64,000 nucleotides of DNA from Patescibacteria group bacterium. Lineage in GTDB: Bacteria; Patescibacteriota; Minisyncoccia; Minisyncoccales; PEYH01. Below the pieces are notes generated by a model, which saw only the letters and a program-made list of their open reading frames with translations, was not told the origin of the DNA and made no database searches. The DNA lies in NCBI GenBank assembly GCA_018900835.1, contig JAHIFQ010000009.1, positions 1,624 to 65,623 on the forward strand. The letters are read 5' to 3'. The first letter of the stretch is position 1. Each line of letters opens with the position of its first letter. A program made the translations under genes and the position numbers. Of this stretch, positions 6,313 to 56,498 are shown in pieces.

Positions 6313-6322
6313 CTCAAAATTT

Positions 6323-7534
6323 ATGTCTGTCTATTCATATACTGCAAAATCGTTCAGCGGGAAAAGCAAAAAAGGAACAGTAGAGGCCAAGAGTAAAAAA
6401 GAATTGGCAAGCATGCTTAAGCAGGATGGGTTTTTTTTGATTTCAGCGGAAGCTGGGAAAGCGCCGAATAAGAAGATAAAAATTTCTTTAGGCATAAAAT
6501 ATGTTTCTCTTACAGAGAAACTGATGGCAACAAGGAATCTGCAGGTGATGATTGCTGCGGGAGTCCCTTTGCCAAGGTCATTGGAAATTTTGAGCACTCA
6601 GGCGAAGAACAAATATTTTAAGAAGGTTTTAGCCAATATTAAAAATGAGATTATTAAGGGGACAACTCTTTCAGATGCTCTGAAAAAATATCCAAGGGTT
6701 TTTCCGGAAATATATTACAGTATGGTTCAAGTCGGAGAGCAAACAGGTAAAATGGAAGAGGTTCTTGATATTCTCGCCATCCAACTTGAAAGAGCTCATG
6801 AGTTGAAGTCAAAGGTGATTGGGGCGATGGTTTATCCAGCAGTGATTATTGCAGCAATGCTTGTTATTGGAGTTATTATGTTGGTCAAGGTCGTGCCTCA
6901 GCTTAGTAAAACATTTGAGGAGTTGGGAGTAGACCTTCCTCCGATGACATTGCTTGTAATCGGACTCGGGAATTTCTTAGTCAATAGGTGGTATATAGTA
7001 ATTTTAATATTATTGGTATTGGTCTTTGCAATTATAATTCTAATAAGAAATAAGACCGGCAAGAAGTATTTTGACGCATGGCTTTTGCGAATTCCAGTAA
7101 TATCAGGGTTAATTAAAAAAATTAATTGCGCCTATACTTCTATCACCTTGAGCGCATTGATTCAAGGAGGGGTCCCGATTGTTACAGCATTGGGGATTTC
7201 GGTTGGCGCAGTGAGCAATACTCATTTCAAAGACGCGCTTAAAGACGCTGCCAAAAAAGTCCAAAAAGGAGAACGATTGTCTTCTGCTATGTCTAAGTTC
7301 CCGAATCTTTATCCGAACCTATTTTTACAGATGCTTCAAGTTGGCGAAGAGACCGGCGAAACATCTGGTATGCTTTCCAAATTAGCTAATTTTTTTGAGG
7401 GCCAGGTAAATAATATTACTAAGAATTTATCGTCTATTATAGAGCCGGTTCTTTTACTCTTTGTTGGAGCTGTTGTCGCTTTTTTTGCAATTGCCATGGT
7501 TCAGCCGATTTATTCAATAATGTCGGGCATGTGA
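6323..7534 (+). CDS. pilC: Type IV pilus platform protein, GspF/PilC family (set 1)
   Basis: Two T2SSF repeats (LSDALKKYPRVFPEIYYSMVQVGEQTG and LSSAMSKFPNLYPNLFLQMLQVGEETG) and three TM blocks. Confidence 0.9.
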   Translation: MSVYSYTAKSFSGKSKKGTVEAKSKKELASMLKQDGFFLISAEAGKAPNKKIKISLGIKYVSLTEKLMATRNLQVMIAAGVPLPRSLEILSTQAKNKYFKKVLANIKNEIIKGTTLSDALKKYPRVFPEIYYSMVQVGEQTGKMEEVLDILAIQLERAHELKSKVIGAMVYPAVIIAAMLVIGVIMLVKVVPQLSKTFEELGVDLPPMTLLVIGLGNFLVNRWYIVILILLVLVFAIIILIRNKTGKKYFDAWLLRIPVISGLIKKINCAYTSITLSALIQGGVPIVTALGISVGAVSNTHFKDALKDAAKKVQKGERLSSAMSKFPNLYPNLFLQMLQVGEETGETSGMLSKLANFFEGQVNNITKNLSSIIEPVLLLFVGAVVAFFAIAMVQPIYSIMSGM

Positions 7535-7539
7535 GGAAT

Positions 7540-7574
7540 CGTAAAGCGAAAAACACAAAACACAAAATAAAAAG
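7540..7574 (-). repeat. Heptamer array of the TTTTRYG/CTTTRCG flavour (reads cgtaaag/cgaaaaa/cacaaaa/cacaaaa/taaaaag on +)
   Basis: Read directly between the pilC stop and the GTG start at 7574. Same unit family as 44221-44270 and 46653-46754. Confidence 0.65.
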
Positions 7575-9430
7575 TGAAAAAGATAAAAAAGAAATTATCC
7601 AATAAAGGATTGACTCCCCGCTTTTTTTCTTACAATCAAAATGGGGGGTTCACCTTAATAGAGGTGCTTGTTGCCACTCTTTTAATCTCCATTATTTTTT
7701 TGGGGATTTTCGGCGGTTTTCAGTTAGCAGTAAGGGTAGTGGCGCAATCCAAAGCCAGAATGCAGGCAGTGTATTTGGCGTCAGAAAAAATAGAAGAGAT
7801 GCGAGGATTGAACTTTGTTGACATTGAAACAACCCAAGAAAGTATTGTCGTTAATGGCGTTGAATATAATACGGAAACAATAGTAGAGGATTTTGACGAT
7901 TGCGCGGACGGGACTATTGAGGGATTTGATTGTTCTGGAGCAATTGTTTTGCCGGATACCGCGCCTGATGATTATAAAAAAATAAAAGTAAGGGTTTCCT
8001 GGCAGACCTTTTTTGGCGGTGAAATGGTTTTAAGCTCTTATGCTGCCTCTGAATCATTGGAAACAGGGGAAGGCAAGGGGGCTATGAGGGTTTCTTTAAG
8101 CGATAGCTTGGGCCAGCCAATAGAGATTTTGACTGGGGACCAATTAGCCCCATGTTCTGCGAGTTCAATCAATATAATAAACAATGGGTATGGCCTTGAC
8201 CAATGTTATGGCACAGATACCAATAACCCCGGGGTCAGGGTTTTAATTTTGGATGAGTCATTGGAGCCGGATGATTATAAAATTATTGTTTCAAAGAGTG
8301 GTTATGCCGCAGCCGAGACATTTCGTTCTGGAGACACATACGGAGGAACAATAATCTCCACGCCAAACAGGAAAAATCCAACAATCAATGAAGGAGAGCT
8401 CTATCCGATTACTTTTATCATTGATTTGTTGAGCGATTTGAATATTAGCACAGCGCTCGCTTGGAGCGGAGATAGTTTTTTTGATACTTTTCTGAACCAG
8501 AACAAAATCTCTACAATAGAGAATCTTATTGTATCCAACGGACAAGCAACTCTAGCAACCAGCTCCCCTATTAGTTATTTTGATTCAGGATATTTAGAAT
8601 CAACGCCAATAGTTCCCGGCGAGATTACTGAATGGTATGATTTTGAATGGTCGGAATTAGAAGACACAGATACAGATATTACATATCAGGTCTTTTATGC
8701 AACCAGTAGTTCGTGGCTTTTGGTTCCTGATATTGATATCCCGGGAAATAGCAGTGGCTTAGAAATGTCACCCGTTGATTTAAGCCAAATGGATATTAAT
8801 AAATATTCTGAATTAAAAATAGGGGCGAATTTTTCAACAAGCGATGTCCTTAAAACACCCACCTTATATGAATGGCGCGCTTCTTGGAAGAATGGCGAGG
8901 AGACAATTATTTCCAATGTGAGTTTCGATATTAGGGGAGACAAGACAGTTGGGACAGATATCGAGGAATACTTGATTTATAAATATTCAGAAACACTAAC
9001 ATCAGATTCAGGCGGGCATAAATTAATATCAGGATTAGAAACAGATAATTACTATTTTTCAGGTTTTATAAAAAACGGAAGCGCGCTTAATCTTAACAGT
9101 AGTTTGAGCCCAATGCCTTTTAATCTTTTATCAGGCACAAGCACGGGATTTACTCTATACCTTGAATCAGACAATTCTTTACTCGTTAAAGTTAAAGATG
9201 TTTCAATCGCAGAGCCGGTTTTTGGCGCTGGAGTCCGACTTTCCAATCAAGGATTAGGATATGATGTGAGCTTGACTACGAATGAGTCAGGAGAAGCGTT
9301 GTTCCTTCCTTTGCAAATAAGCGCAAATTATGTTTTAGAGATTCAGGCGCAAAATTATTATGAAGAAACGATTCCTATTGCTGTTTCAGGAAATAATTAT
9401 AAAGAAGTAGGCATAGAGAGATATGAATAA
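7574..9430 (+). CDS. Giant prepilin-type protein (618 aa) with N-terminal cleavage/methylation motif
   Basis: GGFTLIEVLVATLLISI class III signal (G/FTLIE with Glu at +5) after a basic leader. The large beta-rich ectodomain ends in a carboxypeptidase-regulatory-like segment (my reading). GTG start. Confidence 0.75.
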   Translation: MKKIKKKLSNKGLTPRFFSYNQNGGFTLIEVLVATLLISIIFLGIFGGFQLAVRVVAQSKARMQAVYLASEKIEEMRGLNFVDIETTQESIVVNGVEYNTETIVEDFDDCADGTIEGFDCSGAIVLPDTAPDDYKKIKVRVSWQTFFGGEMVLSSYAASESLETGEGKGAMRVSLSDSLGQPIEILTGDQLAPCSASSINIINNGYGLDQCYGTDTNNPGVRVLILDESLEPDDYKIIVSKSGYAAAETFRSGDTYGGTIISTPNRKNPTINEGELYPITFIIDLLSDLNISTALAWSGDSFFDTFLNQNKISTIENLIVSNGQATLATSSPISYFDSGYLESTPIVPGEITEWYDFEWSELEDTDTDITYQVFYATSSSWLLVPDIDIPGNSSGLEMSPVDLSQMDINKYSELKIGANFSTSDVLKTPTLYEWRASWKNGEETIISNVSFDIRGDKTVGTDIEEYLIYKYSETLTSDSGGHKLISGLETDNYYFSGFIKNGSALNLNSSLSPMPFNLLSGTSTGFTLYLESDNSLLVKVKDVSIAEPVFGAGVRLSNQGLGYDVSLTTNESGEALFLPLQISANYVLEIQAQNYYEETIPIAVSGNNYKEVGIERYE

Positions 9431-9442
9431 ACGATTCTCACT

Positions 9443-10438
9443 ATGAATAAAGGATTTACATTAATAGAAACAATTGTCGCTGTGTTTATTTTAAGCGTTA
9501 TAACAACAGGGTTATTTTCTATCATCCCTGCCATTTATCGCGTTGATAGCTATGCTTGGCATCAGGCGCACGCAACCAATGAGGCAAGGAGAGGGATGAA
9601 GACAATGATAAGAGAAATCAGAGAAGCAATTACCGGCGAAGACGGGTCATATGTGCTTTTATCAGCCCAAGACAACGAACTCATTTTTTTCAGCGACATT
9701 GATAAAGACAATGACATAGAAAGAGTAAGATATTTTTTGGGAGGGACTTCAGATTATCAACAGACGCAGGAATGCGTTACCTATATTGACGGGGGCTCAT
9801 GTTCAATAGTATTTTCTGATTTTTTTAATGGAACATTAAATCAAGCAGTAGTACAGGTAGGCGTTAAGGGCGATTTCGGGCTGTCTAGCGAACTCGCCAA
9901 TATTTATGCTGATAGTGTTTTATTGGGTTCAATTTGTTCCAGCGTGTCATCTTGCGAAGATTGTTCAACTGTCTGGAACGGAATAATGAGCTTTGATGTT
10001 ATGGGTCAGGCGTCTGATAATTATTTGCAATTGACAGCTGATGCCAGTAGCTATGTTAATGACATTTGTTCTCCGGGATATTTTGCTATGCGCGCGCAGT
10101 TTCAATTAAATTGGCAGGCAGAGGAAGCAGGAAAGGAAAGAGAGTTTAAGAGAGGGGTTGTTGAGCCAATCGGCGATATTCCACAATACCTTACAGATAC
10201 GGAGGAAATAACTGTATTGTCCCGCTATGTTCAAAATCAAATAAACAGTCCACAAAAAACCGTTTTTAAATATTATGATAAAGATGGGCAGGAAATAATT
10301 GACCCGATAGAAAGAATAAACAGCACTAAGATTATAAAGATTATGTTGATAGTGAATGTTGAGCCGAATCGCGCGCCCGATGATTATTATCTGCAAAGCA
10401 AAGTTCAATTAAGAAATTTAATTTTTGATAACGAATAA
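9443..10438 (+). CDS. Large prepilin-type protein (331 aa)
   Basis: MNKGFTLIETIVAVFILSVI prepilin motif. Cys-rich ectodomain. Confidence 0.75.
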   Translation: MNKGFTLIETIVAVFILSVITTGLFSIIPAIYRVDSYAWHQAHATNEARRGMKTMIREIREAITGEDGSYVLLSAQDNELIFFSDIDKDNDIERVRYFLGGTSDYQQTQECVTYIDGGSCSIVFSDFFNGTLNQAVVQVGVKGDFGLSSELANIYADSVLLGSICSSVSSCEDCSTVWNGIMSFDVMGQASDNYLQLTADASSYVNDICSPGYFAMRAQFQLNWQAEEAGKEREFKRGVVEPIGDIPQYLTDTEEITVLSRYVQNQINSPQKTVFKYYDKDGQEIIDPIERINSTKIIKIMLIVNVEPNRAPDDYYLQSKVQLRNLIFDNE

Positions 10439-11901
10439 TGAATAGGGAAAAAGGATTTGTCATCACTTATATATTGGTCTTTGGTTCAGTGTTTTTGGTT
10501 TTGTTGGTGGCTCTTTTGGGCTTTATCTTAAGCCAAATGAGGCAGTCGCAGCACGAGTTGGCTTATGAACAATCTCTTCATATCGCAGAAGCAGGTCTAA
10601 ATAGATATAGGTGGTATTTACTGCACAAAGAGCAGGAACTTTTTGGCGGGATTGAGATTGGTTGTCCGCCTTCTGATTGCGTTTCTTGCGACCCCTGCGA
10701 ATACGAATATAGTTTGCCGGGCATCGGAGTAATCGGCAGGTATCGGTTGGATGTTGTTGAGGAGAGACCATGCGACATAACTACATCAATACAAGTGACT
10801 TCAACTGGCTGGACCAATCAGTTTCCCAATGCAGACAGAACAATAAGGGTTCATTATATCAAACCAACGGTTGCAGAATATTCATATATTCTTGACCATA
10901 ATGTTTGGGCAGGAGATGACCGGCTAATTATGGGACCATATCATTCCAATGGAGGAATCCGTATGGATGGGCAAAATAATTCTTTTGTGAGCTCTGAACA
11001 GGAACAATGGGTTTGCACTGATTCGTATGGTTGTTCTCCATGCCCACAGGAGTGCGATTATAGCCCATTGCAAGGATGCGTTTGCTCTGGTGTTTTTACT
11101 ACTGCCAATGGCAACGAAGATTTATTCAGAACAGGCGTGTCCCATTTTGACTTTGAGGGGATTACCATTGATTTGGGCACAATAAAAGGACTCACAAAAC
11201 CGCCACCAGAAGGAGAGGGCAAGGGCATATATATTCCTCCTTCAAATGCTTATGGTTATCATGTTATAATCAACCAAAGGCAGTTGTCTGTAAGAAAAGT
11301 TGAGCGAGTGAGCAGTGTGTATGCTTATGATACGGAGTTGGGTTATTTCTGGGAGTATTCAATAATCAGCAGAGAGAGTTCGGCTGTTAATTACAATTTA
11401 AGCGATTGCGGATTGGTATTTATTGAAGACAATGTTTGGCTTCAGGGTACGGTGAGCGGAAAAATCACTATGGCTATCGCTGACCTGATTACACCGAGCA
11501 CAACAAGAAATGTTTGGCTGAAAGACGATATTGTATATTTGAATCCTGATAATTCCGACAGTTTGGTGGTTCTTGGGCAGAACAATGTTTTGATAACCCC
11601 TGACTCGCCTAATTATTTGGACCTGCAAGGAGTGTTCATAGCCCAGACCGGCCATTTTGGAAGAAATTATTATTCTCCGTATAGTTATCCGAGTTATGCT
11701 AAAAAAGAACAGCTAAATATGTTTGGCTCTATCATTAGCAACGGCAGAGTGGGCACAAAATGGACATCTGGCAGTGTATGGGTCTCTGGCTATAAAGAGA
11801 GGCAGAATATCTATGACCCGACTATGAGCTTTAATCCCCCGCCGTTTTTACCATCTATTTCAGAGGAGTTTAGTTATAAAAAGTGGGAAGAAATACAATG
11901 A
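10438..11901 (+). CDS. PilX-N-like membrane-anchored pilus-associated protein (487 aa)
   Basis: N-terminal anchor GFVITYILVFGSVFLVLLVALLGFIL followed by SLHIAEAGLNRY (PilX_N-type AEAG motif). Cys-rich ectodomain. ATGA overlap with the previous gene. Confidence 0.6.
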   Translation: MNREKGFVITYILVFGSVFLVLLVALLGFILSQMRQSQHELAYEQSLHIAEAGLNRYRWYLLHKEQELFGGIEIGCPPSDCVSCDPCEYEYSLPGIGVIGRYRLDVVEERPCDITTSIQVTSTGWTNQFPNADRTIRVHYIKPTVAEYSYILDHNVWAGDDRLIMGPYHSNGGIRMDGQNNSFVSSEQEQWVCTDSYGCSPCPQECDYSPLQGCVCSGVFTTANGNEDLFRTGVSHFDFEGITIDLGTIKGLTKPPPEGEGKGIYIPPSNAYGYHVIINQRQLSVRKVERVSSVYAYDTELGYFWEYSIISRESSAVNYNLSDCGLVFIEDNVWLQGTVSGKITMAIADLITPSTTRNVWLKDDIVYLNPDNSDSLVVLGQNNVLITPDSPNYLDLQGVFIAQTGHFGRNYYSPYSYPSYAKKEQLNMFGSIISNGRVGTKWTSGSVWVSGYKERQNIYDPTMSFNPPPFLPSISEEFSYKKWEEIQ

Positions 11902-12995
11902 AGTTTAATGTGCTTAATTTACATCCCGGGACATTTGGGTTAGATATTTCTGACCTGTCTTTAAAAGCGGTTTCATTAAAGAAACACAGAAGACATTTAA
12001 GAATAGAGTCGCTCAAAGGAATTCTTTTGCCAGATGGCATAATTCAAGGCGGGGAAGTCAAAGATATAGAAAAACTTGCTGATTTTATAAAAAAAATAGT
12101 TAGCAAACTTAGGGGGCTTGATACTAATCAGGTGATTGTGTCTCTACCAGAAGAAAAGTCGTTTATACGGTTGCTTCGTATGCCGATAATGCCTGCGCAG
12201 GAAATAAAGGAAGCTGTACGATTTGAGGCAGAGAACTATATTCCGTTTTCAATAGACAAAGTTTATCTTGATTCACAGATTGTTCAGTCATTGGATAAAG
12301 ATAATAGTTTCGTGGAAGTTCTGATAGCTGCTTTGCCGAGAAAAACAGTTGACCCTTATGTGTCTGCGATTTATGAGGCCGGCCTTATTCCTGTTGCCAT
12401 GGAAACCGAATCCCAGGCAACTGCGCGAGCGCTGATAAAGGGTTCTTATATCCAGAAACCGGTTTTCATTGTTGATATGGGCGCAACTTCTACGAATTTT
12501 AGTGTTTATTCAGGCAATTCTCTGCGCTTTACTTCGTTTATCCCATTTTCTACAAATAGCTTAACAACTGTTTTATCTAAGGCATTAAAAATTAGCCCGC
12601 AAGAAGCGTATAAAGCGCAACTTCTATATGGATTTCAAAAGAAAGGAGAACGGTCTAAAAGAATATTTGAGGCGCTCCTTCCCTCAATAACCGGATTTAT
12701 AGAGGAAATCAATAAACATATTGATTATTATCAAACCCATTCTTCCCAGAAAGTAAAAGATAGCGCTGATATGGATGTGAAAGAATTGATTTTCTGCGGA
12801 GGCGGAGCAAGGATTAAAGGGTTAACTGGTTTTATGTCTGAAGAAACAGGGCTGAAGGTTCAAAAGGGGGATCCATTAACAAATCTTCCATTGGAAGAGA
12901 AATTGAATAAGAAAATATCTAAAGACGAGCTACTCCCTTTTACAACAGCCATAGGACTTGCCTTGAGGGGATACAAAATTGAACTATATGATTAA
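11898..12995 (+). CDS. pilM: Type IV pilus assembly protein PilM (actin-like ATPase fold), set 1
   Basis: GLDISDLSLKAV..., VDMGATSTN, CGGGARIKGL motifs of PilM/FtsA-like proteins. ATG at 11898 overlaps the upstream stop (ATGA). Confidence 0.85.
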   Translation: MKFNVLNLHPGTFGLDISDLSLKAVSLKKHRRHLRIESLKGILLPDGIIQGGEVKDIEKLADFIKKIVSKLRGLDTNQVIVSLPEEKSFIRLLRMPIMPAQEIKEAVRFEAENYIPFSIDKVYLDSQIVQSLDKDNSFVEVLIAALPRKTVDPYVSAIYEAGLIPVAMETESQATARALIKGSYIQKPVFIVDMGATSTNFSVYSGNSLRFTSFIPFSTNSLTTVLSKALKISPQEAYKAQLLYGFQKKGERSKRIFEALLPSITGFIEEINKHIDYYQTHSSQKVKDSADMDVKELIFCGGGARIKGLTGFMSEETGLKVQKGDPLTNLPLEEKLNKKISKDELLPFTTAIGLALRGYKIELYD

Positions 12996-13521
12996 TTTAT
13001 TGCCACCAATTGAAAAAGGTAAGAGGAGGCGAGAAAAGCAATTAAAATTGATTTGGATTTTAGGCATTTTAGTCGTGGCATCAGTCCTTTCATTCGCCTT
13101 GATTTTGCTTTCTATGAGGTTTTATATCGCTGGCCAGATAAGGGAGCAGGACATTTTAGTAGACGAAGCAAAAGGAAAAAATATTAAGGTAAATATTCTT
13201 CAGGAGAAAATAAAATCAGTCAATCGCACCTTGTCAGGACTGAATGATTTTTATCAGAGCCAATTTCCTCTTACAGATTTTTTGGAAAGGATCTCTAAAT
13301 TACTTCTTCAGGATATGTATTTAGAAAGGTTCTCATATCAGGAGGAGGGCTCGCGCGTGACTTTTACCTGCTATGCACCGACAATTGATTCAATTTATCA
13401 ATTCCGCGAAAGGGTTAGAAGCCAAGACGATTTTGAAGACATCAACTTTGTATTGCCGGATTGGCTTGAGCCAAACAATATAATTTTTAGAGTGAGTTTT
13501 AAGCTAAAATATGAATTATAG
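12988..13521 (+). CDS. pilN: PilN-like bitopic protein, set 1
   Basis: N-terminal MINLLPP (the INLLP motif that binds PilM), one TM, coiled periplasmic part. The position after pilM fits. Confidence 0.7.
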   Translation: MINLLPPIEKGKRRREKQLKLIWILGILVVASVLSFALILLSMRFYIAGQIREQDILVDEAKGKNIKVNILQEKIKSVNRTLSGLNDFYQSQFPLTDFLERISKLLLQDMYLERFSYQEEGSRVTFTCYAPTIDSIYQFRERVRSQDDFEDINFVLPDWLEPNNIIFRVSFKLKYEL

Positions 13522-23145: not shown

Positions 23146-23217
23146 GGCCAGGTAGCCAAGTAGCAAGGCAGCGGTCTGCAAAACCGCTATACGTGGGTGC
23201 AACTCCCGCCCTGGCCT
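23146..23217 (+). tRNA. tRNA-Cys (anticodon GCA)
   Basis: GGCCAGG..CCTGGCC, GCGGT CTGCAAA ACCGC. The T loop TGCAACT is non-canonical, with G at position 55. Confidence 0.75.
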
Positions 23218-25055: not shown

Positions 25056-25759
25056 AAGTTTTTCAATAATTGTTTTAAGTCATCTGGCAATGGAGAAGAA
25101 AATGTTTTTTCCTCACCATCCATTAATTTAATTGTTAGTCCGCTGGCATGAAGGAATTGCCTTGTTAATACTTTTGGCACTATCTGATTCTTGAAAGAAT
25201 ACAGCTTGTCTCCTATTATAGGATGTCCTATATAAGAAAAATGAACTCGTATTTGGTGTTTTCTGCCGGTCTTTGGAATCGCCTCTATCAAGGTATATTT
25301 ATCATATTCTTCTATCATTTTCCATTGCGTTTCAGCCAATCGAGACCCTGTTTTTTTGGCTAAAGGACCGAGCCAAGGGTATGCCCTTTGTTTTTTTCCG
25401 TCTTTATCTCTATTAATCAGGGTTTTGATAATTCCTTCCTTTTCTTGGATTTTACCCCAAACCAGCGCAATATATTTTTTTCGTACATCTCTTGTTCTAA
25501 ACTGTTTTTGGAAAAAAGACAAGGCCTGATTGTTTTTTGCTACCAACAACAGCCCAGAAGTGTCTTTGTCCAAGCGATGAATCAATCCATATCTTGGTGG
25601 TTCGCCGACATTTTTAAGTTCAGGATTAGATTCAACTATCTCAGCCATCAGTCCGGAATCATTGTCTGAAAAAACAGCAATTCCTGCTGGTTTGTCCAAA
25701 ACTATAATGTTTTCATCTTCATAAATAATTTTCATAGTGCTTGGACAGATTGAATCCAT
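25052..25759 (-). CDS. RluA-family pseudouridine synthase
   Basis: Catalytic HRLDKDTSGLLLVAK and KKYIALVWG, HQIRVH motifs. Confidence 0.88.
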   Translation of the reverse strand: MDSICPSTMKIIYEDENIIVLDKPAGIAVFSDNDSGLMAEIVESNPELKNVGEPPRYGLIHRLDKDTSGLLLVAKNNQALSFFQKQFRTRDVRKKYIALVWGKIQEKEGIIKTLINRDKDGKKQRAYPWLGPLAKKTGSRLAETQWKMIEEYDKYTLIEAIPKTGRKHQIRVHFSYIGHPIIGDKLYSFKNQIVPKVLTRQFLHASGLTIKLMDGEEKTFSSPLPDDLKQLLKNL

Positions 25760-25779
25760 CTTGTGATTATTTTGTCAAA

Positions 25780-25855
25780 TGGTGGGCGAGAGAGGATTTG
25801 AACCTCTGGCCTGCCGCGTGTAAGGCGGATGCTCTAGCCGCTGAGCTACTCGCCC
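25780..25855 (-). tRNA. tRNA-Val (anticodon TAC), CCA encoded
   Basis: Reverse complement reads GGGCGAG..CTCGCCC A CCA, loop CTTACAC, T arm AGAGG TTCAAAT CCTCT. Confidence 0.85.
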
Positions 25856-25860
25856 TTTAT

Positions 25861-25894
25861 CCTCCCAACTTTTTATTTAAGAAAAGTTAGGAGG
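25861..25894. other. 13-bp stem-loop cctcccaactttt / aaaagttaggagg (one mismatch)
   Basis: Read directly. It separates tRNA-Val from the orphan tRNA 3' half. Confidence 0.5.
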
Positions 25895-25898
25895 GCAA

Positions 25899-25940
25899 GG
25901 TGGGCACGGTTGGATTTGAACCAACAACCTCGGCCTTATA
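25899..25940 (-). pseudogene. Orphan 3' half of a tRNA-Ile(UAU)-like gene (anticodon TAT through ACC)
   Basis: Reverse complement reads TATAAGGCCGAGGTTGTTGGTTCAAATCCAACCGTGCCCACC. It matches tRNA 26022-26093 except for 3 T-loop bases, and its T loop TTCAAAT is canonical. Confidence 0.8.
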
Positions 25941-25983
25941 GCGGCAACTCTGATTTAATATAATAAATAATTGTAGTTGCCGA

Positions 25984-26019
25984 TATATCGATGATTTCAT
26001 ATTGATTTTATCTCTTTGG
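25984..26019. repeat. Left arm of the inverted repeat flanking the intact tRNA
   Basis: tatatcgatgatttcatattgattttatctctttgg versus the reverse complement of 26097-26134, tatagcgatgattttcatttactaatttatctctttgg. Blocks of 14 nt (one mismatch) and 13 nt (exact), with a variable centre. Confidence 0.8.
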
Positions 26020-26021
26020 TA

Positions 26022-26093
26022 TGGGCACGGTTGGACTCGGACCAACAACCTCGGCCTTATAAGAGCCTTGCTCCGCCATTGAGCTACGTGCCC
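26022..26093 (-). tRNA. tRNA-Ile-like with genomically encoded anticodon TAT (UAU)
   Basis: GGGCACG TA GCTC AATGGCG GAGC A AGGCT CTTATAA GGCCG AGGTT GTTGG TCCGAGT CCAAC CGTGCCC A. The T loop has C at position 55. Confidence 0.75.
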
Positions 26094-26096
26094 ACC

Positions 26097-26134
26097 CCAA
26101 AGAGATAAATTAGTAAATGAAAATCATCGCTATA
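26097..26134. repeat. Right arm of the inverted repeat flanking the intact tRNA
   Basis: See 25984-26019. Its outer tata overlaps the anticodon of the orphan 5' half. Confidence 0.8.
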
Positions 26135-26166
26135 AGAGCCTTGCTCCGCCATTGAGCTACGTGCCC
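26130..26166 (-). pseudogene. Orphan 5' half of the same tRNA (positions 1-37), overlapping the ftsH stop codon
   Basis: Reverse complement reads GGGCACGTAGCTCAATGGCGGAGCAAGGCTCTTATAG, identical to tRNA 26022-26093 through the anticodon. The first 10 nt are the ftsH codons GGC ACG TAG plus C. Confidence 0.8.
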
Positions 26167-28010
26167 TTCTTCTTCCTGCTGATTTTGAGGATTTTTTCAA
26201 TTTCTTCTCTTTCCAGAGTTTCTTTTTCCATCAATTCCTTAGATAATTTTTCCAAAAGGTTCTTTTTTGCTTTTAGGACTTTTATTGCTAAAGCGCTTGC
26301 TTCTTTGATTATTTTTGATACTTCTTCGTCTATTTGTTCAGCTATTTTTTCAGAGTAATTTCTTTCTTCGCCGAAGTCCTTTCCCAAAAACTGAAGTTCG
26401 TTTCTTTCTCCGAAAACAATGGGTCCGAGTTTCTCTGACATGCCATAGTCCTTCACTAATCTCCGCGCCAATTCAGAGGCGATTTTCAGGTCATTGCTTG
26501 CGCCTGTGCTCACCTCCTTGAATTTCATCTTCTCTGTGAAGTATCCTCCGAGCAATGTAGCTATGTCTGCCAAGAAATCAGATTTTGCCTTAATGCTTTT
26601 TTCCTCTATCGGCGATTTAATAGTATATCCTGCCGCCATTCCTCTTGAAACAATAGAAACCTTTCTTACCGGTTCTCCTTTGTCGGTAAATGATGCGACT
26701 ATTGCGTGGCCTGCTTCATGATAGGCAGAAATTTTCTTTTCCCTTGGCGACAAGACATGGCTCTTCCTTTCAGGCCCTAAAAGAACTTTTTCAATTGATT
26801 CTGTCAGTTCTGCTTGGTCTATTTGGTGCTTGTTCCTCCTAGCAGCCAAGATTGCTGCTTCGTTTAAAAGATTTTCCAAATCAGCCCCGGAAAAACCAGG
26901 AGTCCTTTCCGCTATTTCTCTTAAATGGGTGTTTTTCGCCAATGGTTTGCCTCTGGTGTGGATTTTAAGGATTGCCTCTCTGTCTTCTATGCTGGGTAGA
27001 TTTAAGATAACCTGTCTGTCAAATCTGCCTGGTCTTAAAAGTGCAGGGTCCAAAATGTCCGGGCGATTGGTTGCAGCGATTATAATGGTTTTTGAGTCCC
27101 TTTCAAATCCATCCATTTCAACAAGTATCTGATTCAATGTTTGTTCTCTCTCATCATGCCCACCACCCATTCCCATTCCTCTTGTCCTGCCAATAGCGTC
27201 TAATTCATCAATAAAGATAATCGCTTTATTGTGTTTTTTCGCTTCCTGAAATAATGACCTTACTCTTCCGCTTCCTACGCCAACGAATAATTCTATAAAC
27301 TCGGAACCAGCCACAGAAAAAAACGGAACATTGCTCTCGCCTGCGGTTGCTCTTGCCAATAGTGTTTTGCCGCATCCCGGTGGGCCTAATAGCAAAACGC
27401 CTCTTGGAATTTTTGCACCCATATCCAGGAATTTTTTAGGGGTCTTTAAAAATTCAACAATTTCTTTCAATTCTTCTTTTGCTTCTTTTAGTCCAGCCAC
27501 ATCCTCAAAGTTTATCTTTTGTTTTGGATGACCCTCTGCGCCAAAAACACGAGCTCTTGCCTTGGAAAAATTAAATGTTTGCATTGCTCCCATTTTTGCC
27601 TGTTTCGCAAACGACCAAAAGAATAAGCCGAAGATTAATAAAGGAACGGCGAATAACATTATTGAGCCAATTTGTCCCCAGCCCGCCTTGGGCTCCTGAA
27701 CAACCATATTGACCTTTTCCAATTTTTCTTTTTCAACACCGTAATTAGCCAGAGATTCTGAAAGAGCTAATTCAGTTTCTTTTCTGCTTTGCCCCTGACT
27801 GTTGTCGTTATATGTGACGAGAATATCATTTCCAACAACCACAATTTCTTTAACTTTTTCTTGAGCTATTTCTTGGCTAAGTTGGCTTATGGAAATTTCT
27901 TTTTCAACATCAGGGGTTGGAGAAAGAATGGCAAAAACCACTGATATGCCTAAAAAAATCAGTACAATAACAAAAAAGTTCTTCGCTAAGTTTTGCGTTG
28001 CTTTTTTCAT
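26157..28010 (-). CDS. ftsH: ATP-dependent zinc metalloprotease FtsH
   Basis: Two TMs, AAA+ Walker [12 protein letters not shown], Walker [13 protein letters not shown], zinc site HEAGHAIV. Confidence 0.95.
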
Positions 28011-33233: not shown

Positions 33234-34220
33234 ATGAAAAAAAAGATTATTTTTTTCACACTGATTTTTTTAGGGGTTTTTATAGTTTGTCAATCTGTCT
33301 TCTCTGCGACATCTACCGGCGGTTTTGTCACAGTTAATTTAAATTCTTCTTATTCATATCCGGCTGTGGGAGCTGCGATTACTATAACAGCAGGGGTTAA
33401 TATAAATACAACTCAGTGTGTGATCAATTTTGATGATGGAATAGAGATATCATTGGATTGTTGGGAGGCAAGCGATTGTCTCTCAAATCCCAATTGTACT
33501 TGGTCTGATTCTACTGATCCTACTGACCCCCGCGGTTCCGGAAGTTGTTCTTATTCTTTCAGCCATAGTTACGGGACGAGCGGAGAAAAATTTATTACTT
33601 TTTATTGCATAAATTCAGCAAGCTATGAAGCTGGGGTAGATATTCTTATAGAGGTAGGTGGCACACCACGGCCCTGTGAACCTGATGGGTGTAATAACTA
33701 TTGTCCGCAAAATTGCGATGTAAGCCAAGACTATGATTGCGCTTGTGTCGGCGGAAATGGGTGCTGCGCACCTGGATGCGATTTTACCACTGATAGTGAT
33801 TGTCCTCCTCCACGGCCGTGTTCTCCTATTCAGTGCGACCAAATTTGTCAGCCAAATTGCAATGTCAGCCAAGATTCTGATTGCGGATGCCTTGGAGGGA
33901 ACGGTTGTTGCGCCCCGGGATGCACTATTGCTAATGACAGCGATTGTCCTCCTGTTCCAACCCAGTATGACAATCCCTTAACTTGGAGCGATGTGCCAGA
34001 ACTTTTGCAACAAACCATAGAAACCATTTTTGGTATGTTAATGGCTTTGGCAGTCCTGATTATCATAATTGGTGGTTATGTAATGGTAACTTCTGGCGGG
34101 ATTCCTTTAAGATTTGATAAAGGCAAGAAGATAGTTATCTGGGCATTAATAGGATTTGCCGTATCTGCTGTCTCTCGAGGCATAATCGCTTTAGTGGAAA
34201 TGATTATAGGGAAACAATAG
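33234..34220 (+). CDS. Secreted PKD-like + tandem Cys-rich-module protein with C-terminal two-TM VirB2/TrbC-like pilin module (paralog 1)
   Basis: Signal peptide. INFDDG...SHSYGTSGEKFITF is PKD-like. Two 48-aa modules with 10 Cys each. C-terminal NPLTW...LAVLIIIIGGYVMVTSGGIP...GKKIVIWALIGFAVSAVSRGIIALV. Confidence 0.6.
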   Translation: MKKKIIFFTLIFLGVFIVCQSVFSATSTGGFVTVNLNSSYSYPAVGAAITITAGVNINTTQCVINFDDGIEISLDCWEASDCLSNPNCTWSDSTDPTDPRGSGSCSYSFSHSYGTSGEKFITFYCINSASYEAGVDILIEVGGTPRPCEPDGCNNYCPQNCDVSQDYDCACVGGNGCCAPGCDFTTDSDCPPPRPCSPIQCDQICQPNCNVSQDSDCGCLGGNGCCAPGCTIANDSDCPPVPTQYDNPLTWSDVPELLQQTIETIFGMLMALAVLIIIIGGYVMVTSGGIPLRFDKGKKIVIWALIGFAVSAVSRGIIALVEMIIGKQ

Positions 34221-34226
34221 AAAAAT

Positions 34227-35006
34227 ATGAAAACCAAAAGTAATTTAATAATACTATTTTTCGTAGCGGTTTTTTCTATTTTTATATTATTTTCTACAAC
34301 AAGGGTATATGCTGGAAACCCTTTTCCGCCTGACGATGTAATTGTATCAGCAGACACGGTATTTTTAGGCGATTCAAGTCAGATTCAAGTCACAGTCAAA
34401 GCATATCCTTTGGCATATGCCTGGAAGATAAAGGTGGACTTCGGAGATGGGTCGGGCATTAGAACAAGGGTTTGCTTTATTGATTCAATACTTGGTCAGT
34501 GTACTCTAAATTTTCCGCATCCGTATGGTACTATAGGAAGCTATGCTGTTAAAGTGAATGTTTGTGATAAACAAAATATTACACTATGCAGAACTGGTCG
34601 CGCAACCGCTGTCGTGAATGGTCCTTTTGTCTGTGGGAATAACACACTGGAGCCACCAGGCGAAGAATGTGATGATGGAAATACTGTTTCCGGAGATGGA
34701 TGTAGCCAGAGTTGCAAAATAGAACACCCATCTCCGCCACCTGTTAATAATGATTTGAATCCACTTCAAGCAAATACTTTTGGAGAATTATTTAGAGATA
34801 TTGTTGGCGCGATTTTTTGGATAGCAATAATTTTAGGACCTCTACTGATAATCGCTGGAGGGTTTATGATAATTTTTGCTGGCCTGGATGGGGGCAAAAT
34901 AATCTTGGGCAAGAAAATTATTCTATACACTGCTGTAATTCTTGGTATAATATTGATAATAAAGGCAATGGCTGACTTTTTCGCGCCTGATGTAACTTTT
35001 TTATAA
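34227..35006 (+). CDS. Secreted PKD-like protein with Myxococcus-type Cys-rich repeat and C-terminal VirB2/TrbC-like module (paralog 2)
   Basis: KVDFGDGS...HPYGTIGSYAVKVNV (PKD). CGNNTLEPPGEECDDGNTVSGDGCSQSCKIE (CxxxxxExCDDGNxxxGDGCxxxC repeat). NPLQANTF...GGFMIIFAG...GKKIILYTAVILG. Confidence 0.6.
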   Translation: MKTKSNLIILFFVAVFSIFILFSTTRVYAGNPFPPDDVIVSADTVFLGDSSQIQVTVKAYPLAYAWKIKVDFGDGSGIRTRVCFIDSILGQCTLNFPHPYGTIGSYAVKVNVCDKQNITLCRTGRATAVVNGPFVCGNNTLEPPGEECDDGNTVSGDGCSQSCKIEHPSPPPVNNDLNPLQANTFGELFRDIVGAIFWIAIILGPLLIIAGGFMIIFAGLDGGKIILGKKIILYTAVILGIILIIKAMADFFAPDVTFL

Positions 35007-35010
35007 AATT

Positions 35011-35586
35011 ATGAAAAAAACAACATTAATTTTTCCTTTGATTTTGGTGATTCTTTCCTTATTTATTATCGTTGGCCAAGCGCAAGCGCAAATCACTATT
35101 ACCAATCCATTAACTCCGGGGAATATAGATTTTGACGAAATGCTTATAAGGGTCTTGGGCTGGGTATTCGGGTTTGCGTTAGTTATCGGTGTTTTAATGG
35201 TAATAATAGGTGGCTATATGATGATTGTTTCCTCCGGCGACCCAGAAAGATTTTCCACAGGCAGAAAGACCGTTGTTTATGCTTTGTCTGGTGTTGCCAT
35301 TGTAACTGTGTCAAGAGGAATAATCGCCTTGGTGGGGCAAATACTGCCACAGGGAGTGGATGCTGGAACAGCTCTGTATAATATAATAGTTTATGCCTTT
35401 GGATTTTTAATAGTAATAAGCGTTTTAATGCTTATTATTGCGGCCTTTTTATTCATCACTGGCGGAGGAAATCCGGAACAAACAACAAAAGCAAAGAGGT
35501 GGTTGATATACGCCTTAATCGGATTGACTGTTGCGGTAATCAGTAGGGGGCTGGTAGCGCTTGTTCTGTTAATAGTCACTCCTTGA
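35011..35586 (+). CDS. Secreted protein made of two tandem VirB2/TrbC-like two-TM modules (paralog 3)
   Basis: Signal peptide ending AQA. Module a is NPLTPGN...VIIGGYMMIVSSGDPERFSTGRKTVVYALSGVAIVTVSRGIIALV. Module b is ...LIIAAFLFITGGGNPEQTTKAKRWLIYALIGLTVAVISRGLVALV. Confidence 0.6.
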   Translation: MKKTTLIFPLILVILSLFIIVGQAQAQITITNPLTPGNIDFDEMLIRVLGWVFGFALVIGVLMVIIGGYMMIVSSGDPERFSTGRKTVVYALSGVAIVTVSRGIIALVGQILPQGVDAGTALYNIIVYAFGFLIVISVLMLIIAAFLFITGGGNPEQTTKAKRWLIYALIGLTVAVISRGLVALVLLIVTP

Positions 35587-35625
35587 TGAGAGTATTTAAT
35601 AAAAGTTAAATATAAATTTTAGAAA

Positions 35626-36393
35626 TTGCTTATGAAAAAAAATTGTTTACTTTTTATAATGTTAATCATTTGCGGTTTGTTTTTGGGATTGAGCCAGCAA
35701 GTATGCGCAGCCAATCCGCCGGGCTTTGCGGTTGCGTTTATTTCTGAAATTGGTCCCACTAATATACAAACAGGAGATACTGTTAACGGTACGCTTATTA
35801 TAGAAGCAAGTTGTTATAGTGGTGCGGTTGGCGGCGCGGTATTTTTTAAACCAATAATAAATTTTGGCGAGGCGCCTCCACCTTCGGCAACTGCCCCGGA
35901 CGAGCAATTGGAGGGAGGTCCTTGTGTATGTGTGAACGATAGTAACGATACATCGTTAAAAACAGTAAGATGCAGCTATAATTTTAGCCATACCTACAGT
36001 AGAACCGGCACTTTTGCGGTCATCCCAAAGACCTCATATTCTTCTTTCGGATCTTCTGCCGTAGGTTCAAGTGGAACAGCAGAAACCATTTATGTTACAG
36101 AAACGCCTACGCCAACTCCGCATGGAAACGATATCAATCCATTGGTGGCTACCGGAATCGCAGAGCTCATAAGGCAACTTACTGACAGAATTTTTATATA
36201 TTTTAGTGGTTTAGCGGTCTTGTTCGTAATCATGGGTGGGCTTACTATCATGACAGCAGCTGGAAGCCCAACGCGGGTTATGAAAGGAAAAAAGATTGTT
36301 ATTTTTACTATTGTTGGTTATGCCCTTATTATATTAGCAAGGGCGATTGCGATGCTGATTGTAAGAATTTTAGATATTAATGTTGTGATTTAG
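35626..36393 (+). CDS. Secreted PKD-like protein with TPTPTP linker and C-terminal VirB2/TrbC-like module (paralog 4)
   Basis: CSYNFSHTYSRTGTFAV (PKD-like), ETPTPTPHGNDINPL..., VIMGGLTIMTAAGSPTRVMKGKKIVIFTIVGYALIILARAI. The start may be the second Met (35632). Confidence 0.55.
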   Translation: MLMKKNCLLFIMLIICGLFLGLSQQVCAANPPGFAVAFISEIGPTNIQTGDTVNGTLIIEASCYSGAVGGAVFFKPIINFGEAPPPSATAPDEQLEGGPCVCVNDSNDTSLKTVRCSYNFSHTYSRTGTFAVIPKTSYSSFGSSAVGSSGTAETIYVTETPTPTPHGNDINPLVATGIAELIRQLTDRIFIYFSGLAVLFVIMGGLTIMTAAGSPTRVMKGKKIVIFTIVGYALIILARAIAMLIVRILDINVVI

Positions 36394-36501
36394 CTTCCTG
36401 TGGACAAAATACTTGCTTTTTTACGCTTAAGGATTAAAATAGTATAATAAAACAAAACTTCAAAGGTCGGTTAATTGAAAAAAAATAATCAATAAAAAAC
36501 A

Positions 36502-36876
36502 ATGAACAAGAAAATATTGGGGATAATGAGTTTGGTTGTGATTGGAGGACTATGCTTTGCGCCATATTTGGCTTTAGCAGCACCAACTCCTCCTTCTGTA
36601 GGACTCACGCCAAGCCCAACAGACCCGCCGAATATAGACCCAAATGCATTACTTGCAGTGATAATTAGATATGTATTTGGTTTCATGATAGTCGTAGTAG
36701 TTCTAATGCTTATGATTTCTGCTTATATGTTTGTAACAGCAGGGGGTAGCCCAGAACAAGTAGGAAAAGCAAAAAATTTCCTTATTTATGCCTTAATCGG
36801 ATTAGCTGTTGCTGTTTTAGCCAGAGGATTAGTTGGTATAGTGTTGACTATGCTTTGGGGAGCCTCAACAACATAA
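36502..36876 (+). CDS. Minimal VirB2/TrbC-like pilin-type protein (paralog 5)
   Basis: Signal peptide ..LALAAP, Pro/Thr/Ser linker TPPSVGLTPSPTDPP, then LMLMISAYMFVTAGGSPEQVGKAKNFLIYALIGLAVAVLARGLVGIV. Confidence 0.6.
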   Translation: MNKKILGIMSLVVIGGLCFAPYLALAAPTPPSVGLTPSPTDPPNIDPNALLAVIIRYVFGFMIVVVVLMLMISAYMFVTAGGSPEQVGKAKNFLIYALIGLAVAVLARGLVGIVLTMLWGASTT

Positions 36877-45091: not shown

Positions 45092-46678
45092 ATGCCTGAT
45101 AAATATTATCTAAGAATTGCTTTTGCGTCTGATTTGAAAAAAACAAGCGAGCGGTTATTATACCGCTTTTTAGAAATGCTGCCTGGCATAATAACATGGA
45201 CAACCCTTCTCGGCGCAATTCTGTTGTCTTATCTTAAGCCCATATTGATATCCATTTTTATTATCATTTTTGTAATATATTGGCTTTCCAAGACAATATA
45301 TTTTTCGTTTCACCTAAGAGTAAGTTATCAAAAAATGAAGCAAAACATAGAAATTGACTGGTTAGGCAAGTTGAACAAGCTTGGTACACCCTCCAACGGA
45401 CTGCCGATTCATCACTGGAATGAAATATACCATTTAATAGTTCTGCCAATGTATAAGGAGCCGTATGAAGTTGTAAGAGAATCCATAAAATCGCTTTTAA
45501 GAACTGATTATCCCAAAGACAAAATGATTGTTATTTTAGCCCAAGAAGAGAGGGCTGGAAATGATTTCAATAATGAATTGTCCAAGAAGATAGGTCAGGA
45601 ATTTAAAAATAGTTTTTATCAATTTTTTATTACTGTCCACCCAAAGGACTTACCCGGGGAAATAGCAGCAAAGTCCTCAAATGAAACATGGGCAGCCAAG
45701 AAGGCAAAGGAGCTAATATCTGTGCTCAATATTCCTTTTGAAAAAGTCATTTTTTCATCTTTTGACATAGACACAGTTGTTTCTGCCGATTACTTCGGCT
45801 GTCTTACTCATCACTATTTAACTACCCCAAAGCCATTGCGAACCAGTTTTCAACCAATCCCTTTGTTTTTAAACAATGTCTGGCAAGCCCCTGGAATATC
45901 AAGGGTATTTTCTTTTTCTTCAAGCTTTTGGCATTTGATTAATCAGCAAAGACCGGAAAAATTAATAACTTTTTCATCGCACTCAATGCCGTTCAAGGCA
46001 TTAGTTGATGTTGGTTTTAAGCAAACAGATGTTGTTTCAGATGATTCCCGGATTTTTTGGCAATGCCTTTTATTTTATGATGGCGATTATCGCGCAGAGC
46101 CGTTGAATTGTTCCATATCCATGGATGCCAATGCAGCAGAAACGCTTCGCAGAACTATTGTTCATATGTATAAACAACAAAGAAGGTGGGCTTATGGCGC
46201 AGGAGAAATTCCTTATTTTATTTTCGGATTTTTAAAGAATAAAAAAATATCTCTCAAAAGAAAGATTGCCTTAGCATTTGAAGCTATAGAGGGGCACTGG
46301 AATTGGGCTTGCGCCCCCATCCTTATTTTCGCCTTGGGCTGGCTTCCGATTTATCTTGGTGGCTCGGAATTTACCCAAACGATTTTTTCATACAATCTGC
46401 CAAAAATACTCGGCAGAATTCTTACAATTTCTATGCTTGGCTTGATTATGTCTATGTATTACACTTTTTATCTTTTGCCCCCAAAACCAAACACCAAGAA
46501 ACAGAAATTAAATATTTTGTGGGCCTGTGTGCAATGGATATTGGTGCCCTTTACAATGATATTTTTTACTGCTTTTCCAGCCATAGACGCGCAGACAAGA
46601 TTGCTTTTGGGGAAATATATGGGATTCTGGCCAACCCCGAAGCACAGGAAAGTGCAAAGCGTAAAACAAAAAGCGTAA
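45092..46678 (+). CDS. Membrane-embedded processive GT2 glycosyltransferase (cellulose/chitin-synthase-like, QxxRW type)
   Basis: LPMYKEPYEVV, DKMIVILAQEE, SFDIDT and QQRRWAYGA (Q-x-x-R-W), flanked by N- and C-terminal TM bundles. Confidence 0.7.
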   Translation: MPDKYYLRIAFASDLKKTSERLLYRFLEMLPGIITWTTLLGAILLSYLKPILISIFIIIFVIYWLSKTIYFSFHLRVSYQKMKQNIEIDWLGKLNKLGTPSNGLPIHHWNEIYHLIVLPMYKEPYEVVRESIKSLLRTDYPKDKMIVILAQEERAGNDFNNELSKKIGQEFKNSFYQFFITVHPKDLPGEIAAKSSNETWAAKKAKELISVLNIPFEKVIFSSFDIDTVVSADYFGCLTHHYLTTPKPLRTSFQPIPLFLNNVWQAPGISRVFSFSSSFWHLINQQRPEKLITFSSHSMPFKALVDVGFKQTDVVSDDSRIFWQCLLFYDGDYRAEPLNCSISMDANAAETLRRTIVHMYKQQRRWAYGAGEIPYFIFGFLKNKKISLKRKIALAFEAIEGHWNWACAPILIFALGWLPIYLGGSEFTQTIFSYNLPKILGRILTISMLGLIMSMYYTFYLLPPKPNTKKQKLNILWACVQWILVPFTMIFFTAFPAIDAQTRLLLGKYMGFWPTPKHRKVQSVKQKA

Positions 46679-46687
46679 AACAACAAT
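46653..46687 (-). repeat. Heptamer array (reads tgcaaag/cgtaaaa/caaaaag/cgtaaaa/caacaat on +) covering the last codons and stop of the GT2 gene
   Basis: Read directly. It encodes ...VQSVKQKA*. Confidence 0.7.
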
Positions 46688-46719
46688 TTAAAATTTAAAC
46701 TTTTATTTTTGCACTGTTA

Positions 46720-46754
46720 TTTTGCGCTTTACACTTTACGCTTTACGCTTTATT
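46720..46754 (+). repeat. Heptamer array ttttgcg/ctttaca/ctttacg/ctttacg/ctttatt, inverted relative to 46653-46687
   Basis: Read directly. It abuts the recG stop (46750-46752). The two arrays can pair (aaagcgtaaa / tttacgcttt). Confidence 0.7.
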
Positions 46755-53250: not shown

Positions 53251-53267
53251 AAGTTAATATTCTTCTT

Positions 53268-53807: not shown

Positions 53808-53812
53808 TTATA

Positions 53813-54376: not shown

Positions 54377-54379
54377 TTT

Positions 54380-56473: not shown

Positions 56474-56498
56474 AATAATTATTAATTTATTATAAAAT

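Follow-up and report, generated by a model that had tools for sequence, protein, structure and literature searches.

A complete tRNA-Ile(UAU) gene between two halves of its own kind: a probable palindromic insert with a replacement tRNA in Patescibacteria

How does a complete tRNA gene come to lie between the halves of another gene for the same tRNA, and which of the two serves the cell? The question is raised by a 64,000-nucleotide stretch of a Patescibacteria group bacterium (contig JAHIFQ010000009.1), which was analysed as a whole and is called the window. On its minus strand, ftsH is followed by the 5′ half of a tRNA-Ile(UAU) gene, a complete tRNA-Ile(UAU) gene enclosed by two complementary arms, a hairpin, and the 3′ half of a tRNA-Ile(UAU) gene. 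An earlier note on this DNA, made from the sequence alone, had offered two readings of the arrangement: a split and nested tRNA that functions after the joining of its halves, or the insertion of an element that carries a tRNA, has terminal inverted repeats of about 36 bp, and duplicated its TATA target. We favour the second, since a relative has an empty site at this position and another lineage has a homologous insert. The locus would hold a palindromic insert of about 190 bp that carries its own replacement tRNA and is flanked by relics of the resident gene, a reading to which we assign a probability of roughly 0.65.

The locus, its empty site and its counterpart in a second lineage

The six parts listed in the earlier note are all present on the minus strand at the places it gave (Table 1), and the ftsH stop codon is located inside the outer 5′ half, as had been claimed. 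The 5′ half, previously taken as 37 nucleotides (26166-26130) identical to the intact gene, is 100% identical to positions 1-36 of the inner tRNA (blastn-short E 9e-16), whereas base 26130 differs. The outer 3′ half shares 37 of 40 nucleotides with the inner copy (93%, E 5e-11). The three differences are all positioned in the T loop, which reads TTCAAAT in the orphan half and TCCGAGT in the intact gene, in agreement with the earlier note. The same 3′ half is identical, at 41 of 41 nucleotides, to the sole tRNA-Ile(UAU) of a relative whose FtsH is 74% identical to that of the window (L023), and the inner T loop is one step away from the T loop of L006. The note had also expected the halves to join into a canonical tRNA, and the joined halves indeed fold as a canonical cloverleaf.

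The insert has a length of 190 nucleotides, 72 of which belong to the tRNA, and is non-coding; the spurious open reading frames (ORFs) over it were not called by gene callers in any of the relatives' contigs examined. The resident gene is broken at the central TATA of the palindromic anticodon-loop DNA CTTATAAG, and TATA is found at three junctions: between the 5′ half and the left arm (arm1), between the right arm (arm2) and the hairpin, and between the hairpin and the 3′ half. Orphan halves of any other tRNA are absent from the window.

The 16 nucleotides of arm1 that adjoin the inner tRNA lengthen its acceptor stem into a stalk, and the distal segment of arm1, GCGATGATTT, pairs with the end of arm2. 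The arms and the inner acceptor stem form a continuous helix of about 22-24 bp in the window, besides which there is a separate distal arm helix. The continuous helix pairs nucleotide -1 with the discriminator. The duplex between the flanks of the inner tRNA has a predicted energy of -30.2 kcal/mol, compared with -9.0 ± 2.8 kcal/mol in shuffles (z = -7.7), and the same flank-duplex comparison detected no complementary flanks around the other 18 tRNAs in the window. The whole 276-nucleotide stretch is predicted to fold as nested cloverleaves (z = -8.0), with the inner cloverleaf positioned within the extended anticodon stem of the outer one.

The locus is embedded in a conserved gene order, gyrA - lactamase_B_3 - S1 - ftsH - tRNA-Ile(UAU) - tRNA-Val - rluA - rplS. 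The earlier note proposed comparing the 3′ flank of ftsH among relatives, and this comparison provided both an empty site with a single TATA and a homologous insert. In L006, with an FtsH 89% identical to that of the window, tRNA-Ile(UAU) is present as a single intact gene that belongs to the sequence type of the window, contains one TATA, and overlaps the ftsH stop just as the outer 5′ half does in the window. The L006 locus is the empty site. The gene is also simple in L009, L017, L021-22, L023-28, L015, and L016. In L002-L005 (FtsH 90%), an ORF of 222 amino acids with a helix-turn-helix (HTH) domain separates ftsH from a quite different tRNA-Ile(UAU). A metagenome scan with the 5′-half pattern, in a collection without the contig of the window, recovered only two more distant relatives, both of which have simple genes.

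A second insert is present in a species represented by seven contigs (L018, L019, L020, L029, L031, L032, and L033), the FtsH of which is 75% identical to that of the window. No fewer than four independent assemblies (NCBI, ENA, JGI, Logan) contributed these contigs, which are identical across the locus. Downstream of ftsH there are a 5′ half that ends with CTTATA, arm1′, a complete tRNA-Ile(UAU), arm2′, a hairpin, a 3′ half that starts with CATAA, and tRNA-Val. The insert is 196 nucleotides long, occupies the same position in the anticodon loop as the insert in the window, and is flanked by TATA ... CATA. The two loci align colinearly, their arm2 sequences are homologous, and the 3′ strand of the hairpin in the window, AGTTGCCGC, is kept as the end of the hairpin in L018.

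The outer tRNA of the L018 species is a decayed relic, whereas the inner tRNA is intact. In the outer tRNA, 3 of the 7 acceptor pairs, 2 of the 4 D-stem pairs, and 2 of the 5 T-stem pairs are broken, and U8 is lost. The ftsH gene runs 20 nucleotides into the former 5′ half and stops in the D loop. The outer sequence has a maximum identity of 73% to any tRNA-Ile in the compared set. Every stem of the inner tRNA is kept, seven pairs of them through changes on both sides. An eighth contig, L030 (JGI 3300005265, also listed under NCBI), has an 82-nucleotide deletion (~4150-4195) that starts directly past the anticodon-stem strand in the outer 3′ half, reaches the matching point of tRNA-Val, and thereby removes the 5′ part of the latter gene. 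The deletion was caused either by recombination between the two tRNA-like sequences or by mis-assembly.

The stalk and inner acceptor stem of the two lineages can be aligned over 22 pairs, 100% of which are paired in both. Nine of the pairs, six of them stalk pairs, have changed on both sides, without a single broken pair. Two further compensatory changes and one A.C are found in the distal arm helix. This pattern of substitutions shows the arms to be under selection to pair. Arm2 together with the hairpin, 81 nucleotides in each lineage, is 65% identical (z = 6.3 against shuffles), and a control spacer in the same comparison gave z = 0.9. Between the window and L018, ftsH has reached saturation at its four-fold degenerate sites (28% identity). 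The insert is thus conserved beyond the neutral expectation between the two lineages. Because the outer halves can still be recognised in L018 and are undamaged in the window, both insertions should be younger than the split of the lineages, which points to at least two insertions at one site and so argues for a site-specific insert with present or past mobility. One G.U pair occurs in the stalk of the window and two, judged by eye, in the hairpin of L018; all three would be A.C on the opposite strand, which weakly indicates selection on the sense RNA.

Position 55 of the T loop is normally an invariant U, and the C55 of the inner copy, pointed out in the earlier note, could be taken as a sign that this copy is aberrant. 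Such an argument is weakened by the sole-copy tRNA-Ile(UAU) genes of L015 (TCCGAAT) and L002 (TCCGAGC), which also have C55, and the inner copy is therefore plausibly functional. C55 recurs in the tRNA-Ile(UAU) of three lineages, and the genes of L015 and L016 differ solely by this T/C. The only other tRNA without U55 among the 19 of the window is tRNA-Cys(GCA) at 23146-23217, with the T loop TGCAACT and G55. The tRNA-Ile type of the window is 94% identical to that of L023 (FtsH 74%), but only 65-69% identical to those of L009 and L002 (FtsH 90%). The tRNA-Ile(UAU) at this locus thus does not follow the FtsH tree, which suggests that the gene has been replaced repeatedly.

Because the window belongs to a metagenome-assembled genome, strain variants or a mis-joined repeat might have produced the nested arrangement. 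The locus is covered by three Logan contigs of the same strain from other sequencing runs: L001 (SRR9644739), L007 (SRR6976411), and L008 (SRR9644742). L001 ends exactly at base 30 of the 36-nucleotide repeat, and L007 begins exactly at base 7. In Logan assemblies, which we take to be k=31 de Bruijn graphs, such contig ends mean that the repeat truly has two left and two right neighbours. In both L007 and L008, the sequence from the inner tRNA through arm2, the hairpin, and the 3′ half to tRNA-Val shows no difference from the window. In L008, ftsH leads straight into the inner tRNA, and the first 73 nucleotides (5′ half and arm1) are missing, either through a true deletion between the 36-nucleotide direct repeats or through a collapsed graph loop. 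If the L008 version is real, the 5′ half and arm1 are dispensable. The shorter version of the locus in L008 would fit an assembly artefact, but the contig ends inside the repeat in two other samples, the renewed recovery of the stretch from the inner tRNA to the 3′ half, and the identical architecture in the seven contigs of the L018 species, which were assembled without a long exact repeat, make such an artefact scarcely credible.

A replacement tRNA in a palindromic insert, and the alternatives

We propose that the resident tRNA-Ile(UAU) gene was opened at the central TATA of its anticodon-loop DNA and that a unit composed of arm, tRNA, arm, and hairpin was inserted there. The inner tRNA-Ile(UAU) is probably the working gene, as its intact stems in both lineages suggest, and the outer 5′ and 3′ halves would be relics of the resident gene. 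Since the outer halves are still pristine in the window, the insertion there is presumably young. Neither promoter-like nor terminator-like sites were found on the tRNA strand between ftsH and tRNA-Val, and the tRNA is therefore probably cut from a long ftsH-tRNA-tRNA-rluA transcript. A helix that pairs nucleotide -1 with the discriminator should hinder RNase P. Hence, an RNase III-type cut of the stalk would be expected to come first, followed by RNase P cleavage and 3′ trimming. The stalk may serve in this way as a double-strand-specific processing site that frees the inner pre-tRNA.

The same arms may also act in the DNA, as the terminal inverted repeats of a site-specific insert similar to a miniature inverted-repeat transposable element (MITE). 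The direct repeats of 36 and 40 nucleotides that the insertion created would permit its partial or full loss through recombination. The duplicated TATA coincides exactly with the four bases at the centre of the palindrome formed by the anticodon stem-loop DNA. As LAGLIDADG nucleases leave 4-nucleotide 3′ overhangs at the centre of pseudo-palindromic targets, a LAGLIDADG-type cut at the TATA could be a lead to the enzyme that moves the insert.

Several observations weigh against the palindromic insert. One copy per genome was seen, and two members of the family are known. The cargo tRNA of the window is nearly identical to the gene that it interrupts (36/36 and 37/40 nucleotides), so that a foreign element would need either a very close donor or a gene conversion that followed its insertion. 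In the window, the two copies may be alleles of different origin, which would fit a close donor as well as a partial gene conversion. Of the two T loops, that of the orphan 3′ half is the more canonical, and this half matches the L023 gene without a difference, as would a still-functional exon. The compensatory changes of the arms fit an RNA helix and co-evolving terminal repeats alike. Exact patterns of the arm sequence, from which diverged members escape, retrieved nothing related from 185,579 species genomes and IMG/VR: the five matches in genome contigs are from unrelated organisms and are taken as chance, and viral contigs matched neither the arm pattern nor two patterns that include parts conserved with L018. 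A 17-nucleotide motif of the right end had eight viral matches, none in a tRNA context, where about 28 are expected by chance according to a rough estimate. Further copies of the arms were found neither elsewhere in the 64-kb window nor in any relative locus examined. Genes for a transposase, an integrase, or RNase III are absent from the approximately 60 ORFs of the window.

The halves could instead be the exons of a functional interrupted tRNA, from which an endonuclease or RNase III removes the 190-nucleotide insert before a ligase joins the halves, so that two species of tRNA-Ile(UAU) are produced. The predicted fold joins the outer halves, with the anticodon stem running on into the insert helix; the joined halves make a canonical tRNA with a canonical T loop; the ambiguity of the junction spans the canonical 37/38 intron position; and the outer 3′ half is free of substitutions relative to the working gene of L023. 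However, a scripted search for the bulge-helix-bulge (BHB) motif of archaeal introns and split tRNAs, defined as a 3-nucleotide bulge, a 4-bp helix, and a 3-nucleotide bulge, with flanking helices of three pairs each scored, found none in five junction registers of either the window or L018. The central helix had 0-3 of its 4 pairs, and there was no register in which the central and both flanking helices were fully paired. A group I or group II intron was likewise rejected, as Rfam returned tRNA matches only, both at the gathering threshold for the window and at E <= 10 for positions 25700-26400. The terminal G of group I introns is absent, the five registers of the insert ending with A, U, A, U, and C. 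No RtcB-type ligase or splicing endonuclease was identified among the ORFs of the window. Moreover, the exon halves are not kept functional wherever the arrangement occurs, as the outer acceptor, D, and T stems of L018 are broken while its arms pair perfectly, and L008 lacks the 5′ half. The functional split tRNA of the earlier note thus finds no support, and we regard it as very unlikely. We know of no protein-dependent tRNA splicing in bacteria. It would be required if both tRNAs were made here, the inner one through a cut of the stalk and the outer one through removal of the insert by a nuclease and joining by an RNA ligase. Such double use can be entertained for the organism of the window, because its halves are intact and canonical, but the decayed halves of L018 and the L008 variant argue against it, and we consider it highly improbable.

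It is conceivable, although unlikely, that the arrangement is old, vertically inherited, and no longer mobile. The insert would then have entered once, in the common ancestor of the window and L018 lineages, and have been lost repeatedly in relatives via recombination between the direct repeats. The stalk and hairpin would have been kept as processing signals of the only tRNA-Ile(UAU), and the outer halves of the window would have remained intact via gene conversion with the inner copy. A single entry agrees with the shared site and synteny, with the one copy per genome, and with the sister position of the two element-bearing clades in the FtsH tree. The compensatory pattern of the stalk is typical of a long-lived functional helix, and the direct repeats would ease precise loss, of which L008 may show one case. 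Nevertheless, with neutral sites saturated (28%), so old a pseudogene should be unrecognisable, yet decay of the halves is only moderate in L018 and absent in the window. Furthermore, gene conversion from the inner copy cannot explain the outer T loop, which has three differences from the inner one and equals that of L023. A local rearrangement without any element, in which tandem tRNA duplications were followed by partial deletions or a break was repaired and the inverted repeats are incidental, would account for the near-identity of the inner and outer copies, as expected of duplication within a genome. The mobile-looking HTH family genes and a LAGLIDADG-domain gene near the tRNA cluster in relatives make breaks plausible. 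This origin is nonetheless very doubtful: homologues of the arms and hairpin occupy the corresponding site in an independent lineage, close relatives with an empty site lack both, and the two junctions are on the same TATA. The locus is therefore most likely occupied by a little-known kind of self-compensating insert rather than by a spliced split tRNA.

Coordinates and neighbouring genes

Table 1. Features of the tRNA-Ile(UAU) locus and its surroundings. Positions refer to the window unless L015 or L002 is named.
Feature	Position	Strand	Description
ftsH	26157..28010	-	617 amino acids; 100% match to Patescibacteria FtsH P0001
ftsH TAG stop	26159-26157	-	Positions 8-10 of the outer tRNA 5′ half
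Outer (orphan) 5′ half of resident tRNA-Ile(UAU)	26166-26131	-	36 nucleotides, positions 1-36, ends CTTATA
arm1, left inverted-repeat arm	26130-26094	-	37 nucleotides
Inner complete tRNA-Ile(UAU)	26093-26022	-	72 nucleotides, T loop TCCGAGT; ARAGORN; Rfam tRNA 61.1 bits
T loop with C55, inner tRNA	26040-26046
arm2, right inverted-repeat arm	26021-25984	-	38 nucleotides including terminal TATA; complementary to arm1
Hairpin B	25983-25941	-	Stem CGGCAACT/AGTTGCCG, 25-nucleotide A+T-rich loop, TATA on either side
Outer (orphan) 3′ half of resident tRNA-Ile(UAU)	25940-25899	-	42 nucleotides, TATA to discriminator + CC; T loop TTCAAAT
13-bp hairpin	25861..25894	-	CCTCCCAACTTTT/AAAAGTTAGGAGG; in the 43-nucleotide spacer from the outer 3′ half to tRNA-Val
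tRNA-Val(UAC)	25780..25855	-	Conserved neighbour downstream of the tRNA-Ile locus
rluA	25759-25052	-	After tRNA-Val
rplS	25055-24474	-	After rluA
T loop with C55, L015	~3624-3630	-	
T loop with C55, L002	~4631-4637

The 13-bp hairpin downstream of the outer 3′ half is without a counterpart in relatives: the spacers of their simple loci measure only 1-23 nucleotides and lack hairpins. It may represent another small palindromic insertion. Elsewhere in the window, at 46649-46751, there is an imperfect palindrome with arms of 51 nucleotides that are 75% complementary and contain repeated AAAGCGTAAA units. It is located between the convergent ends of recG and of a 528-amino-acid ORF that has no Pfam match.

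The ORFs of about 222 amino acids with an N-terminal HTH are positioned beside the tRNA-Ile/tRNA-Val pair in L002 (3800-4655; also in L003-L005) and in L006 (5098-5769). The two are homologous (30% identity, E 4e-30), and are found upstream of tRNA-Ile in L002 and downstream of tRNA-Val in L006. With its 3′ end, the L002 ORF overlaps the divergent tRNA-Ile(UAU) of that contig, and in L002 a sequence that resembles a decayed tRNA 5′ half follows the ftsH stop. The ORF looks like a mobile gene and is a candidate homing endonuclease (motif LYWGEGSK / LYWAEGAK); a LAGLIDADG nuclease domain in it was not confirmed by Pfam, PDB, or pairwise comparison with the HTH and LAGLIDADG_3 ORF of the window. 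The latter is a free-standing ORF of 326 amino acids at 49106-50086 (LAGLIDADG_3 E 5.8e-08), between tRNA-Arg(GCG) and tRNA-Ser(GCU), and an NYN-domain ORF (50464-51150) follows tRNA-Ser(UGA). L023 has a LAGLIDADG_3 ORF after rplS and an intein in gyrA. The FtsH proteins P0004 (L009:1244-4402), P0027, P0028, P0103, and P0119 have lengths of about 1050-1080 amino acids and contain an intein with LAGLIDADG_3, whereas the ftsH of the window has none. The window also encodes two type IV pilus clusters, at 4558-13521 and 52192-62145 (PilB/T2SSE, PilC/T2SSF, PilM/N/O, prepilins, and prepilin peptidase), and several T4SS_pilin-domain ORFs at 33234-36876.

Significance and comparison with known systems

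If the locus is indeed a palindromic insert with its own tRNA, it represents a compact way of entering an essential tRNA gene that spares the host: the resident gene is split, and the insert carries a substitute at its hairpin tip, whereupon the host depends on the insert. The locus would then be a bacterial snapshot of tRNA "genes in pieces" and bear on the debate about the origin of archaeal split and intron-containing tRNAs. Such inserts may also explain why the tRNA-Ile(UAU) at this locus departs from the host phylogeny in these Parcubacteria. Annotators should be aware that orphan tRNA halves on either side of a complete copy can form a specific structure that recurs. A conserved stalk that is continuous with the acceptor stem offers a testable, unusual route of tRNA maturation in a phylum with reduced RNA-processing machinery. 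The main importance of the locus is the recurrence of the insert, with a conserved and co-varying stalk, in a second lineage.

Our literature searches found no description of a tRNA nested within its own halves. A phage origin was considered and rejected, since the insert produced generic tRNA matches only in a blastn search of 50,697 phage records. The archaeal split, permuted, and intron-containing tRNA genes (BHB introns, Nanoarchaeum) are similar to the locus in the break within the anticodon loop, the complementary sequences, and a junction compatible with position 37/38. They differ from it in that the locus has a bacterial host, no BHB, a full copy of the same tRNA inside, and halves that decay in L018. 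The group I introns in tRNAs of Patescibacteria are ordinary ribozymes at position 35/36 of tRNA-Asn and tRNA-Asp (PMC13011429). They share the phylum and the anticodon-loop target with the insert, which has neither a ribozyme core nor a terminal G, and in which 72 of the 190 nucleotides are tRNA.

Bacterial MITEs (Correia/NEMIS, ERIC, RUP, and RPE) are non-coding, shorter than 200 bp, and have terminal inverted repeats and a TA-containing target duplication, and their transcripts fold into long stem-loops. In Neisseria, the transcripts of such elements are cut by RNase III (review PMC2229807). The insert is likewise a short non-coding unit with terminal inverted repeats (190 nucleotides, 196 in L018; arms of 37 and 38 nucleotides), and it has a target-site duplication, as TATA is present on both sides in the window versus a single TATA in L006. 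Unlike the MITEs, it was seen in a single copy per genome, carries a complete tRNA gene at the tip of its hairpin, and has a specific insertion site in the anticodon loop of a tRNA of its own kind, with no known cognate transposase.

Integrative elements that target tRNA genes resemble the insert in another respect. As Williams reportedly described in 2002 for integrase sublocation classes, such elements enter the anticodon loop and rebuild the gene from a 3′ part that they bring along. Both they and the insert are inserted in the anticodon loop, function is kept by the sequence brought in, and the displaced 3′ part is left as a direct repeat, which at this locus starts from the anticodon and has a length of 40 nucleotides (93% identity). 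The insert differs in the additional duplication of the 5′ half, as it carries the whole tRNA, in its length of only about 190 bp, and in its inverted arms; no adjoining integrase was found in the window.

The processing stalks of rRNA operons, the flanks of which pair and are cut by RNase III, also enclose a stable RNA in a long flank helix with compensatory changes. The flank helix of the insert has the length of about 20 bp or more expected of a processing stalk, with 22 aligned pairs of which 9 have changed on both sides. In contrast to the rRNA stalks, it surrounds just one tRNA, as an uninterrupted extension of the acceptor stem, and its cleavage is predicted. Taken together, these comparisons lead us to view the locus as a MITE-like insert that also follows the way in which integrative elements restore the tRNA gene they enter.

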